DNA of 64,000 nucleotides, taken from contig JAIXUW010000292.1 in assembly GCA_027483355.1 (NCBI GenBank), positions 4,628 to 68,627 on the forward strand, in the 5' to 3' direction. The position numbers were made by a program, and so were the translations under genes. Shown here piece by piece: positions 1-64,000 of this stretch (position 1 is the first letter of the stretch; every line of letters starts with the position of its first letter). The notes under the pieces are model-generated. The model saw nothing but the letters and a program-made list of their open reading frames with translations. It was not told where the DNA came from and made no database searches. The DNA is from Alphaproteobacteria bacterium. GTDB lineage: Bacteria; Pseudomonadota; Alphaproteobacteria; Micavibrionales; UBA2020.

Positions 1-2
1 CG

Positions 3-2576
3 GGCTTCCAGTACATTACGCATTCGTTTTCGTCGCTCGCAAAACGCGCCGTTGGCGCTGCCGCGGATACTGGTGCATGGGTTAATGTCACCGACGGAAA
101 TCGACTGGGCGGTGATTTATCGGGCACGATTAGAAACGGAACGGTTCAAAAGGTGGGCGGGTTCACGGCAAACTACGTTGCTCAAGGCGCCGCGCTCGCG
201 TACACTCTCAATTCGACGTTTAACAACAACGGCACCGGTTACGTGCTACCGTTTGACATTCCTGCGAATTCGATCGTGTTTCCCGCTGTCAACGCTTCGA
301 CGGCAAGAATAGCGTTCACGGGACCGTTCAATTTAGGATTTGACGACTCTGCGGGAGGCCCGATCACTGTGAACTTTAACGGCAATTTGCTTCGCAATGG
401 AGTTCCGGTCGGAAACGTCTACGCACCTTTGACGGCCGTCGACATAGGAACGTTTGCGTTTTTCGAATCGCAAAATCAGCTCGGGTTCACGAATGTGATG
501 AGAATCGGGCCAGGCGGTTCTTCGGTCATTATAAACGGGACTCTGAACGCTCAAAATGTGACTATTGGAGGCGTGAGCTTTAACACGTACATTGAACAGG
601 CCGTCAATGAATCCGTGTCCAATTTGATGCCGAATGAGACAGTGATCAGGCAGATTGTGACTGAAATCGTGCAAAACATCACACTGTCCCCGAACGCGAC
701 TGAAGTCGCTATCATAGTCAATCAAATCCTGGCAAATTACACATTCAACCCGAACGTGACTTTGATCGAGGAAATCGTCAACGCGGCGCTTGCCAATTAC
801 ACGTTCAATCCCAACGCGACTTTGATTCAAGAAATCGTGCTCAATACTCTGGCCAATTACACGTTTAATCCCAATATTACGTTGTTGAACGAGTTGATCT
901 ACCAGGCTCTACTCACGATTAATGTCACAATTCCGCCGCCAAACGTGACTTTGATCAGAGAAATCGTCGACGAGGAACTGCAAAAGATCAACATAACAGT
1001 AGGCAATTTCACGCTTCCGGAAAGACTGGTATACGGACCGTTAGTCACGCCGATTGCGTCAGGGAGAATCCCTTACTTCTTCGACACATCGGGCCGGAAT
1101 ATCACAGACTCGTCGGCGACTTATTTTCCGGGAAACAACTCGTATTCGTTCACGGCATTGACGGCAAATTCGTTGATAGCAAGTTCGTTTGTCAACGCAA
1201 ACACGTTTGTGGGTAATTCGGTGTCAGCGGCTCTTGTCAACGCTGCCACAATTTCCGGGGCCACGATTACTGCAAGCTCAAGTGTGTCTGCACCGACAAT
1301 TACTGCCACGGGAGCGCTTTCGGGAAATACTATTTCTGCGACGACTTCAATCACAGGGCCTGTCATCACAGCGTCCACTCAAGTATCGACGCCGCTCATA
1401 ATAGCGACGGGAAATTTGACCTTGAACCCAACGGGTAGCAGTATATTGTTTTCAAACAAGAACGCGCTCAATTTGGGAACAATCACGTCGTCTATATCAG
1501 GCTCGGCCGCTCATGCATTCACCATGACTGGTGCCTGGAATGCGATGTGGCTGACAAATGGCGGTACGACGGGTAATCTGAGATTTCAGACCGCTGGACC
1601 CGGAAACCAAGGATTTGTGTCGATTGCTTTTAATGGCGGAAACACAGACGCCGGAGAACAAAGGGACAACATATCAAAGAACAGATACCGGCTCTACTCG
1701 GACCAAAGAGGATCAACAGACAACTTTGTAATCGACGTTTGGAATGGCGTTGGGCCTGCTGCAGTAGCCATGCAAATCGGCCCAACTACAAGTTCGCTCG
1801 TATCGTTCCCCACGGGAATAACTACTCGGTCAGTCACTGCGCAAAACGATGTCACCGCTAGAAATATCAATCTTCTAGTGTCTACTGGAGCGGCTTTATC
1901 GCTTACAACGCCGCTTATTGTTCCCACAAACACGGGGCCTCATCTTTTTCTGGCGCAACATTACTCTACCGCGTCAGGAAACTTGGAAGGGACCAAGATC
2001 AAAATGTTCGGTGATGCTTATGGTATTGGAATGGCGGCCGGTGCAATGTATTTTGTCACTCCGTTGACCGCTGCACTAAATTTCCATTTTGCCGACACAA
2101 GTGGAAGCAGCCCGGTGACTACCATGAACCAGTTTGGTATAACAACCGAGCGCGTGTTTGCAAATCAATATGACCAAGTATGCGAATTTGTAGTGGTCGA
2201 CTCGGCAACCCCTCCTCCAGGGTGGGCAGGCTCCTTGAGAATGAGGCTCTACAAGGCTGGCCGCCAAGTCCATTTTGCACTACTGAGCAGTGCTGTTGAC
2301 AATTTTAGATGTACCGCGGCTTTTGGCTGCGGAGTGCTGGGACTTTCTACCAATTTGCTCTCCTCGTGCCCGGGCTACGAGCCATTTGAAACAATATCTG
2401 GAATTTATCAGCTGGCCGCTACTGAAGTACCTCCTAGAGCGTCACGCGTCGCTATCACGCCGACTGGGTTTTTGCAGTTTACATGCCTGTGGCGATGCAC
2501 TTCATCCAATTCATTTGACGTCGGCCCAGTGGTAGACGCGGGCGGTTCATTGATAGTTTATTACAGAAGCGCGTAA
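3..2576 (+). CDS. 5'-truncated large sequon-rich repeat protein (virion fibre or envelope glycoprotein-like)
   Basis: The frame is open from the window edge, with no stop between nt 3 and the listed GTG at 153, and ends at the stop at 2574-2576. There are about 20 N-x-S/T sequons. A 20-aa tandem repeat (xIVNxxLANYTFNPNxTLIxE) is followed by a Ser/Thr/Ala-rich roughly 10-aa periodic segment (SVSAPTITATGALSGNTISATTSITGPVITAS) of the kind seen in fibre and tail-spike proteins. AATAAA lies 30 nt after the stop. Confidence 0.6.
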   Translation, partial: GFQYITHSFSSLAKRAVGAAADTGAWVNVTDGNRLGGDLSGTIRNGTVQKVGGFTANYVAQGAALAYTLNSTFNNNGTGYVLPFDIPANSIVFPAVNASTARIAFTGPFNLGFDDSAGGPITVNFNGNLLRNGVPVGNVYAPLTAVDIGTFAFFESQNQLGFTNVMRIGPGGSSVIINGTLNAQNVTIGGVSFNTYIEQAVNESVSNLMPNETVIRQIVTEIVQNITLSPNATEVAIIVNQILANYTFNPNVTLIEEIVNAALANYTFNPNATLIQEIVLNTLANYTFNPNITLLNELIYQALLTINVTIPPPNVTLIREIVDEELQKINITVGNFTLPERLVYGPLVTPIASGRIPYFFDTSGRNITDSSATYFPGNNSYSFTALTANSLIASSFVNANTFVGNSVSAALVNAATISGATITASSSVSAPTITATGALSGNTISATTSITGPVITASTQVSTPLIIATGNLTLNPTGSSILFSNKNALNLGTITSSISGSAAHAFTMTGAWNAMWLTNGGTTGNLRFQTAGPGNQGFVSIAFNGGNTDAGEQRDNISKNRYRLYSDQRGSTDNFVIDVWNGVGPAAVAMQIGPTTSSLVSFPTGITTRSVTAQNDVTARNINLLVSTGAALSLTTPLIVPTNTGPHLFLAQHYSTASGNLEGTKIKMFGDAYGIGMAAGAMYFVTPLTAALNFHFADTSGSSPVTTMNQFGITTERVFANQYDQVCEFVVVDSATPPPGWAGSLRMRLYKAGRQVHFALLSSAVDNFRCTAAFGCGVLGLSTNLLSSCPGYEPFETISGIYQLAATEVPPRASRVAITPTGFLQFTCLWRCTSSNSFDVGPVVDAGGSLIVYYRSA
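633..1000 (+). repeat. In-frame 60-nt (20-aa) tandem repeat, about 6 units of which 3 are near-identical
   Basis: The units NATEVAIIVNQILANYTFNP / NVTLIEEIVNAALANYTFNP / NATLIQEIVLNTLANYTFNP are flanked by more degenerate units (NETVIRQIVTEIVQ, NVTLIREIVDEELQ). Confidence 0.85.
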
Positions 2577-2605
2577 AACACTCGCGCGCGTTTTCACGTG
2601 TACAT

Positions 2606-63131: not shown

Positions 63132-63246
63132 CGACGGTTTTAAATATTTCTGGCCGCAAGAGCTCTTTTTTCCCGCCTATACAGTTCTAATTGTCTCGAC
63201 GGCCGCGGAATCGAGTCTCGTTATAATCTATACACAGATTTACTTT

Positions 63247-64000
63247 TTACATGTTTTTCGTAAGCGCTCCGGCCCGTTTTCGCGCATAGGCGCGAATGAG
63301 TTCGCTATTGGACGCGGGAGATTGTTGTTGCTCTTGTCGTCTAGGAGCTTGTCTTGGTACAACAACGGCTGCCTTTGGCCGAGGCGTTTTCGTGTCATCG
63401 ACACTGTCGTCGTTCTTGTCAGCGTTTTCCTCACTGTCCTCGCTCTCTTCATCGTCGTCGTCGTCATCTTCACTATCATCATTATCATCACCGTCGCCGT
63501 CGTCGCCCTCATTTGCGTCTCGCTCCTCCCTAATGCGGTCCTGTTCGGCTAGTTCTGCCGCCTTGGCGTATATAGTATACTTGATCATGGACGGGCTCAG
63601 TTGAAAGTCAATGACATTCTTGGACACGTAGCCCAGAGACGCGGCCGTGTTTGTCGCTATCAAATTGATGAATCCTATAAAGGTGAGTACTGTGAGTGCC
63701 AAACTCGCCAGTGCACTCACTCCGAATTGCAGAATGGGAAAATAGAGAGCCACAGCGGCCAGTCCTTGGGCCCCGAGTCCCGCGTAGCCTTGTACTAACG
63801 CCGTCAAGGAGCAGGGCAGGAAATTTGCAAACATGGGATCACTTTTAGTCCACATGGGGAACTTGTCCTTGCGCCAGTCAGCCGACGGAACGGGTTTGGT
63901 GATTATACCAAAACTGACAATGTTCAAAATGTTGTATGTCACGTCCGCCGCGACTTTTAGAGCGGAAAACACGTCCGAGCTCAGGCCGTACGCTTCCCAA
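63247..64000 (-). CDS. 5'-truncated membrane protein with an Asp/Glu-rich block near the C-terminus
   Basis: The frame stays open from the listed GTG (63972) to the window edge. It has several hydrophobic segments (LGAQGLAAVALYFPILQFGVSALASLALTVLTFIGFINLIA) followed by NEGDDGDGDDNDDSEDDDDDDEESEDSEE. Confidence 0.5.
   Translation of the reverse strand, partial: WEAYGLSSDVFSALKVAADVTYNILNIVSFGIITKPVPSADWRKDKFPMWTKSDPMFANFLPCSLTALVQGYAGLGAQGLAAVALYFPILQFGVSALASLALTVLTFIGFINLIATNTAASLGYVSKNVIDFQLSPSMIKYTIYAKAAELAEQDRIREERDANEGDDGDGDDNDDSEDDDDDDEESEDSEENADKNDDSVDDTKTPRPKAAVVVPRQAPRRQEQQQSPASNSELIRAYARKRAGALTKNM

Follow-up and report, generated by a model that had tools for sequence, protein, structure and literature searches.

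What kind of virus carries a herpesvirus-like terminase gene together with repeat, RING and DNA repair genes of the sort found in viruses of protists? This question is raised by a 64-kb stretch of contig JAIXUW010000292.1, hereafter called the window. The whole NCBI contig is 292 kb long (292,368 bp); our analysis covers the 64 kb of the window, and the other 228 kb lie outside it. An initial annotation, made by reading the letters alone, had described a capsid-assembly module of herpesvirus and phage type inside a genome that otherwise looks like a giant virus, and had proposed a mirusvirus or a deeply divergent herpes-like lineage of a protist. We conclude that the window probably belongs to a large DNA virus whose host is a marine unicellular eukaryote and whose terminase large subunit (TerL) is of the herpesvirus/mirusvirus type. 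The virus likely represents a little-sampled lineage that lies within Mirusviricota or is its close sister, and we put the probability of this reading at about 0.7. The terminase type implies that the virus belongs to Duplodnaviria. The proposed taxonomic neighbourhood thus proved right, as judged from the TerL matches, the splice acceptor and the architecture of the terminase gene.

The terminase is the best-supported part of the finding. Two exons of the TerL gene are present in the window, separated by a spliceosomal intron (Table 1). The first of them, exon A, starts with K-L-R-G-Q-G-A-V-H-L-A-V-F-D-E, where VHLAVFDE is the Walker B motif, and continues with the C-motif WFLSS and the nuclease motif I VLVLHDPANGG. 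Exon B contains the nuclease motif II LVFESNMSQ and the motif III GCKDDAVTLLALA, with the residues G-C-K-D-D-A-V-T-L-L-A-L-A. Exon A is itself opened by a 3' splice site, atgcag↓AAA CTC AGA GGC CAA (the arrow marks the junction), in phase 0 and two codons before R-G-Q. A relative of this TerL from another sample (locus L003; locus labels are ours) has 60% protein identity to it, and the exon B segment is 54% identical. Both TerL junctions are kept in L003, including the GT..AG boundaries, the pyrimidine tract and the CTAAC element. The three acidic nuclease motifs (hhhhDPA; hhhhE-x-N; DD near the C-terminus) are present in the window TerL and conserved in the relative. The frame that would read through the intron shows the wrong pattern of substitutions by codon position and a negative coding score.

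We compared this terminase with pUL15, the terminase of herpesviruses. Herpesvirus loci were fetched from IMG/VR using as a seed a fragment of UL15 of herpes simplex virus 1 (HSV-1), which was 100% identical to a 152,222-bp record, and a second IMG/VR scan added gammaherpesviruses to the set. The alignment of the window TerL and its L003 relative was then compared by hhalign, profile against profile, with 18 C-terminal halves of pUL15 of alpha- and gammaherpesviruses. Three collinear local matches were obtained, and each of them falls on a catalytic motif. The match of the block of Walker B and C-motif (TerL 2-55 versus pUL15 1-53) has P=3.7e-4. Sub-optimal alignments gave P=0.038 for nuclease motif II (344-366 versus 235-257) and P=0.27 for motif III (499-547 versus 325-367). 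All 53 column-shuffled queries stayed below the top TerL score (30.4 for the best shuffle versus 38.3), and the cross-controls, TerL against profiles of major capsid proteins (MCP) and the reverse, gave P values of 0.2-0.65. The spacing from DE of Walker B to SS of the C-motif is identical in the window TerL and in herpesvirus pUL15. With a hidden Markov model (HMM) of the herpesvirus TerL, exon B is the top-ranked of 433 six-frame segments, with a score that is not significant.

The most telling terminase result is the shared splice site. The acceptor of exon A coincides in codon and phase with the acceptor of UL15 exon 2 in HSV-1 and other alpha- and gammaherpesviruses (position 10001 in L008-L050), two residues before R-G-Q. 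The acceptor of alphaherpesviruses reads ag↓GGA (or GGG/GGC), then ATC or GTG, then CGA GGN CAG; that of gammaherpesviruses reads ag↓AGC (or AGT), then ATC or ATT, then CGG GGN CAG. We assign the terminase to the herpes/mirus type because of both the collinear matches to pUL15 and the splice acceptor at the homologous codon. One more likeness to herpesviruses is the presence of antisense gene content within a terminase intron; in HSV-1 the genes in the UL15 intron are UL16 and UL17. The two terminases also differ. The identity is about 25% and is confined to the motifs, and the window TerL has a second intron, in its nuclease domain. In the fetched herpesvirus loci the 5' exon lies at most 10 kb upstream of exon 2, whereas the window contains none within 52 kb.

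Indeed, motif scans and an HMM of the N-terminal half of herpesvirus pUL15 found the Walker A motif and the N-terminal half of TerL nowhere in the window, and no credible open reading frame (ORF) of the window has a P-loop. That leaves three places for the 5' half of the gene: over 52 kb upstream, the opposite strand, or some other part of the contig. The TerL with an RNase-H-like nuclease that the initial annotation had named is therefore a real terminase, but only its 3' half, and joining the two exons does not yield a whole TerL. Two candidates for the missing part were rejected. The Walker-A-like sequence FLGQRDTGKT (IVCFLGQRDTGKTLLAILAG; frame 61572-61925, +) is probably a chance occurrence, since it is antisense to a better-scoring 491-aa ORF (61656-63131, -), which coding scores favour along its whole length, and lies downstream of the other TerL exons. 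The match of the HMM of the N-terminal half at 14216-14911 (+) is a low-complexity antisense artefact.

The nuclease-domain intron contains a gene of its own on the opposite strand. Its counterpart in L003, also a 228-aa ORF, is in the same place (994-1680, -) and is 50% identical to it. The differences between the two ORFs at codon positions 1, 2 and 3 number 91, 71 and 148. As third positions vary most when the minus strand is read, it is the antisense ORF and not a TerL read-through that is the constrained frame. At its stop, this nested gene extends 21 nt into the upstream exon, and its protein has no Pfam match. In most orders of mirusviruses the C-terminal part of the terminase starts at Walker B, while the 5' half is encoded elsewhere and joined by trans-splicing; a gene-bearing intron, MING-1, occupies a fixed site in the nuclease region, and some splice sites of mirusvirus terminases match those of alloherpesviruses exactly (PMC12768974). 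The window TerL agrees with these phylum-level traits in the break near Walker B and in the gene-bearing intron of the nuclease region. The nested gene may be a counterpart of the MING-1 intron gene.

If the assignments are right, the life of this virus could be outlined as follows. A spliced TerL gene points to the host nucleus as the place where its transcript would be made and spliced, either by trans-splicing or by very long-range cis-splicing; the same argument has been made for intron-rich mirusviruses (PMC12768974). The joined TerL would cut the genomic DNA and pump it into procapsids. The procapsids would be built from a 1411-aa protein, putatively an HK97-fold MCP, on a 761-aa protease-scaffold, which would remove itself through cleavage at sites of A↓S type. 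Replication would be helped by the virus's own family B DNA polymerase (PolB), a PriS-type primase and nucleases, and repair enzymes also appear to be virus-encoded.

The 1411-aa protein is a candidate for an HK97-type MCP in view of its size, its conservation and the fact that the window also has a herpes-type terminase. It has two relatives with 57% identity (ENA ERZ7462356 and SRA SRR11430616). An exhaustive HMMER profile search through 1.84 billion cluster representatives yielded seven relatives in total. The five distant ones have 20-30% identity; three of them are full-length, and the other two are pieces of the same gene, located on one contig. None of the seven proteins bears a name. 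The full-length relatives are 1316-1527 aa long. A further profile search yielded three close proteins only. One Tara Oceans scaffold among the JGI metagenomes encodes a C-terminus 59% identical to that of the candidate; searches of IMG/VR found no relative of either the TerL or the MCP candidate, and a search of the JGI metagenomes found none of the TerL. The candidate is conserved at about 60-420 and 1060-1411, and its middle is variable. This pattern resembles the floor-versus-tower split of herpesvirus MCPs, as in HSV-1 VP5; it is a resemblance and not a test. In every relative the gene has the same neighbours, with a protein of roughly 1000 aa and some small ORFs on one side and a 300-aa protein on the other; this synteny is kept in L001, L002, L004, L006 and L007. 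In L006 (ENA ERZ26695388, a 95-kb contig) the homologue is divided into three ORFs (10001-13878) by a frameshift and an in-frame stop. We rejected introns as the cause, because the coverage of 2.4x makes an assembly error likelier.

The 761-aa protein adjoins TerL. Its layout, as read from the sequence, is like that of herpesvirus pUL26: an N-terminal globular domain of about 225 aa, a linker rich in P, Q and A, a helical region and a conserved C-terminal tail. With L003 it shares 37% identity in its C-terminal part. The candidate catalytic triad is H64 (W-D-H-E), S116 (G-L-S-P) and H145 (Y-H-M-S). Herpesvirus proteases cleave at release and maturation sites with the consensus (V/L/I)-x-A↓S. 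Candidate sites of A↓S type in the window protein are YYKA↓HS (220/221) and VLA↓SG (723/724), and a protease-scaffold-like gene with such candidate sites is one more likeness to herpesviruses. When the protein was compared by hhalign with 45 assemblins of alpha-, beta- and gammaherpesviruses, only the block of the first catalytic His was aligned (57-105 versus 48-95, P=0.013). The domain layout and this one weak local match make the assemblin assignment a lead and not a confirmation.

Several results weigh against the proposed placement and the assignments that go with it. The TerL, the MCP candidate and the protease candidate have no significant match in Pfam, PHROGs or the PDB sequences at E-values up to 10, and hmmsearch with herpesvirus HMMs gave nothing significant. 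One of 89 shuffled queries matched the assemblin score, so this match is weak. For the 761-aa protein BLASTP, hmmsearch, Pfam (Peptidase_S21 included), PHROGs and PDB sequences were all negative. The MCP candidate has no similarity to PDB sequences or to the herpesvirus MCP profile, and Pfam and PHROGs are silent as well. The AlphaFold models of this protein are unusable, with a pLDDT of 38.8 for residues 1-1200 (alignment of 9 sequences) and of 35.4 for residues 40-480 (8 sequences); the HK97 fold is neither supported nor contradicted by these two models, and a Foldseek comparison of the first model with the PDB gave only noise, with no match at E<=0.001. Since a profile of the candidate matches only seven proteins, the bulk of mirusvirus MCPs, provided that this library includes them, are not detectably similar to it. 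No portal, triplex 1, triplex 2 or conserved jelly-roll protein was recognised within the window. Finally, the described mirusviruses do not combine their features in the way the window does. PolB and the other replication genes are reportedly missing in Okeanovirales and Styxvirales (PMC12768974), whereas the window has PolB and PriS. The mirusviruses of thraustochytrids and Ostreobium have a single full-length unsplit terminase ORF.

The likenesses to Mirusviricota are nevertheless numerous. With the orders that have a split terminase (Okeanovirales, Styxvirales and cryptic orders; PMC12768974), the window shares a TerL 3' half that starts just before Walker B, spliceosomal GT..AG introns in a gene of the virion module, and a gene nested in the nuclease-region intron. 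It also shares with them few Pfam-annotated genes, RING proteins (here weak matches), a contig of about 290 kb and a marine origin, as the window lineage has a Tara Oceans relative. The episomes of Soporavirales from thraustochytrids and Ostreobium (AurliV-1, Schizochytrium CM015707/8) are 275-325 kb long, and they too have PolB and a herpes-like virion module; a Fic-domain gene is found in both AurliV-1 and the relative's contig L004. The core accessory functions of Mirusviricota are heliorhodopsin, histones, TATA-binding protein, Snf2, Snf7 and RING, and some orders also have an informational module like that of Nucleocytoviricota. Genes for heliorhodopsin, histone, TATA-binding protein and Snf2/Snf7 are absent from the window, and the MCP candidate differs from the phylum in being detectably similar by HMMER to its seven relatives only. 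By published descriptions, the contig fits the phylum as a whole without fitting any of the four named orders in their summarised form, because the terminase of Soporavirales is unsplit and the intron-rich orders with a split terminase lack PolB. The contig is probably a cryptic single-genome mirusvirus family or a sister lineage.

The same misfit could mean that the virus belongs to a deep herpes-like lineage of its own among protist viruses, distinct from the described Mirusviricota and from Herpesvirales, which shares with them the ancestral Duplodnaviria morphogenesis module and an ancient terminase intron. Such a lineage would agree with an MCP family of seven relatives in 1.84 billion representatives and none in IMG/VR, with an acceptor position identical to that of Herpesviridae UL15, and with a combination of PolB, PriS and a split terminase that is unlike all four named mirusvirus orders. 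However, 102 single-genome families and cryptic orders have already been placed inside Mirusviricota, and one intron-rich cryptic family has MING-1 introns (PMC12768974); besides, the misfit concerns published descriptions of the named orders. We consider a separate lineage unlikely. With the same reserve we mention the idea of a lineage of eukaryotic Duplodnaviria at the level of an order or class, as yet undescribed and situated between herpesviruses and the described mirusviruses. It would have retained a PolB and a PriS-type primase of its own alongside the split, intron-bearing terminase, and its terminase intron would be orthologous to the UL15 intron; it is an improbable version of the placement. 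A giant virus of Nucleocytoviricota type, in which the herpes-like motifs arose by chance, is far less probable than either. It would account for the DUF285, repeat, RING, AlkB and GIY-YIG proteins and the tRNA, all typical of protist giant viruses, and for the fact that none of the three morphogenesis calls is significant in databases. Against this stand the absence of any core gene of nucleocytoplasmic large DNA viruses (NCLDV) in 64 kb and the TerL matches, which are collinear on all catalytic motifs, beat all shuffles and are accompanied by the UL15 intron site.

A different matter is whether the window represents an actively transmitted virus or an endogenous or episomal element, possibly a decaying one, in an assembly of a protist. 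The source is a contig of 292,368 bp, and both thraustochytrids and a green alga are known to harbour mirusviruses of 269-325 kb as episomes or integrants. On the other hand, the window is dense with long intact ORFs and has no cellular housekeeping gene. The 57%-identity relatives from two other samples keep the synteny, the splice sites and a third-position bias of divergence, which argues for a functional, evolving virus lineage. We find an endogenous element doubtful, although slightly less so than a separate lineage. It would also be compatible with the mirusvirus reading, as a latent form would be the same virus.

Mirusviruses are a proposed link among herpesviruses, tailed phages and giant viruses, and they are mostly known from fragmented metagenome bins. 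The window comes from a long contig of a rare lineage, for which 15 billion proteins include three close relatives and some five distant ones, and provides a clean case of an odd terminase architecture. The codon-exact coincidence with the UL15 splice site argues for either an ancient shared intron or a strong site-specific re-insertion. If the introns are orthologous, the intron and the nuclear, spliced expression of the packaging enzyme would predate the separation of herpesviruses and mirusviruses. The split terminase here is combined with the virus's own PolB and primase, whereas the published intron-rich mirusviruses have no replication genes; this may inform the evolution of nuclear dependence. 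Herpes-type capsid genes in protist viruses are already established, and our finding extends this knowledge and does not overturn it.

The window as a whole is densely coding DNA of viral type, with genes on both strands and short intergenic gaps. It contains 52 non-overlapping ATG-started ORFs of at least 80 aa, and its GC content is about 0.48 (range 0.45-0.54). The Pfam scans covered 50 ATG-started ORFs, i.e., 49 of these 52 predicted genes and the ORF nested in the intron; three small ones were left out. Pfam recognises very few of the proteins, the majority have no family match at all, and no cellular housekeeping gene was found among these ORFs. Around the ends of ORFs, neither poly(A) and TATA signals nor enriched k-mers gave anything decisive.

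Chimeric giant-virus content, as claimed in the initial annotation, was not borne out in the window. Pfam found no Nucleocytoviricota hallmark (double-jelly-roll MCP, A32-type ATPase, D5 primase-helicase, VLTF3) among the 50 ORFs and no RNA polymerase subunit, TopoII or TFIIS in the 64 kb. The lack of a double-jelly-roll capsid candidate had been stated correctly, and the combination of such a capsid protein with an FtsK-type packaging ATPase, which would have spoken against a herpes-like capsid module, is absent from the window in both its parts. The polymerase is closest to archaeal-type enzymes and the primase is a PriS of eukaryotic type; these two genes give no evidence of an NCLDV-like informational module, and thus chimeric content is not demonstrated within the window. 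Genes of the repeat, RING, AlkB and GIY-YIG kinds are widespread accessories in viruses of protists in general and give no evidence of an NCLDV module either. In its accessory genes the virus does not resemble animal herpesviruses, and its host is presumably a protist. The window also differs from herpesviruses in that no similarity to their MCP or triplex 2 was detected.

Table 1. Positions of the features discussed, in coordinates of the window
Feature	Position	Strand	Evidence or remark
302-aa conserved neighbour of the MCP candidate	4990-5898	+	D...ELK motif; no Pfam match
1411-aa conserved protein, candidate MCP	8993-13228	-	Putative HK97 fold
996-aa conserved protein	14456-17446	-	Acidic C-terminal tail; always beside the MCP candidate
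DUF3522 multi-pass membrane protein	19921-20667	-	PF12036 1e-8
GIY-YIG nuclease with CCHC zinc knuckles	29581-30174	+	PF01541 3.9e-5; PF00098 1.1e-7
Family B DNA polymerase, 797 aa	32049-34442	-	PF00136 2.5e-11 (residues 357-707); phrog_262 1.2e-20
tRNA-Glu (anticodon UUC)	35116-35188	+	ARAGORN; Rfam RF00005, 53.5 bits
Repeat protein of MORN-like shape	38987-40243	+	12 copies of the 24-aa unit W-Y-x-x-G-x-L-H-R-D-G-D-L-P-A
YqaJ-type PD-(D/E)XK exonuclease domain protein	43642-45357	+	PF09588 2.3e-9
Two DUF285 (BspA-type leucine-rich repeat) paralogues	45462-46454, 47294-48232	+	PF03382 about 2e-29 each
AlkB-family dioxygenase	48263-49132	+	PDB sequences: ALKBH3 3.2e-8, ALKBH2 about 1e-5
TerL, first exon in the window (exon A)	52414-53313	+	Walker B, C-motif, ATPase C-subdomain, nuclease motif I
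228-aa gene on the opposite strand within the TerL nuclease-domain intron	53293-53979	-	Conserved in L003
TerL nuclease-domain intron, spliceosomal type	53314-54048	+	735 nt, phase 0; GTACGC...CTAAC...TAG
TerL, last exon (exon B)	54049-54819	+	Nuclease motifs II and III
761-aa candidate capsid protease-scaffold	54913-57198	-	Adjoins TerL
Eukaryote-type small primase subunit (PriS/AEP)	59926-60828	+	Profile match 1.2e-8

The best PDB-sequence matches of the PolB are B-family polymerases of archaea (2e-8, residues 353-695 only). Only the polymerase domain (about 353-707) is matched, and the N-terminal 350 aa contain no recognisable exonuclease domain. Judging by these matches, the protein appears closest to compact archaeal-type B polymerases. 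Its motif C reads L-G-I-T-D-S; the canonical motif of the family is Y-G-D-T-D-S. The tRNA-Glu gene lies 670 nt upstream of the PolB gene, on the other strand. The primase match was obtained with a profile of two sequences, the window protein and its homologue from L007, which matched the small primase subunits of human and yeast.

Most of the other genes named in the initial annotation were recovered by profile or sequence matches (Table 1). This concerns the PriS-like primase, the AlkB protein, the GIY-YIG nuclease, the BspA-type repeat proteins and the tRNA, on which ARAGORN and Rfam are concordant. The proposed PAQR/CREST hydrolase corresponds to the DUF3522 membrane protein, which has homologues at the syntenic place in L002, L004 and L006; DUF3522 is a family of TMEM8/CREST type. 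Two claims held in part. The MORN-like protein does contain the 12 repeats, counted by a regular expression at a spacing of 24 residues, but Pfam MORN itself has no match. RING-like matches are present, but all of them are below the Pfam cut-off, including that of the gene located between the two DUF285 paralogues on the opposite strand (0.0012). The two paralogues share 37% identity.

Directly upstream of the TerL exon lie the genes of two neighbouring proteins, each about 430 aa long (49298-50563 and 50924-52249, +). Both have a C-terminal Cys-rich RING-like end, the second by reading only, and a motif W-x-F-V-D-R-I; BLAST at 1e-5 does not call them paralogues.

The 996-aa neighbour of the MCP candidate has homologues in L001, L002, L004, L006 and L007, and its family has no PDB match. 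Homologues of the 302-aa neighbour, with 28-65% identity, are found in L001, L002, L005, L006 and L007. The possibility that it is triplex 2 was rejected, as its D...ELK motif suggests a PD-(D/E)XK nuclease, a putative function that we infer from the motif; the profile of herpesvirus UL18 matched none of the 27 window ORFs compared with it. Three ORFs of 315, 131 and 145 aa (6821-8827, -), which lie between the MCP candidate and its conserved neighbours, have no counterpart in L001 and L002, the relatives with 57% identity, and look like a lineage-specific insertion. In L004 (JGI 3300073880, a 117-kb contig) the Fic-domain gene is at 18949-20133, near the MCP homologue; the mirusvirus episome of Aurantiochytrium (CE1, later AurliV-1) was reported to encode a Fic protein. 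The ORF at 153-2576 (+), which encodes roughly 700-800 aa, abounds in N-x-T/S sites and also contains imperfect repeats some 20 aa long (NYTFNPN.TL). It occupies the place of an 815-870-aa gene of the relatives, to which it has no BLAST similarity, and may encode a fast-evolving surface or fibre protein.

The product of 24741-25709 (-) contains a block of tandem PQPAAEL(V/A) repeats with a sub-threshold Cornifin match, and its C-terminal half is cysteine-rich. There are also two pairs of small paralogues, at 41686-42615 (-; 126 and 131 aa, 45% identity) and at 31026-32002 (+; 186 and 100 aa, 51-64% identity). The members of the second pair are rich in arginine and histidine and may not be protein-coding.

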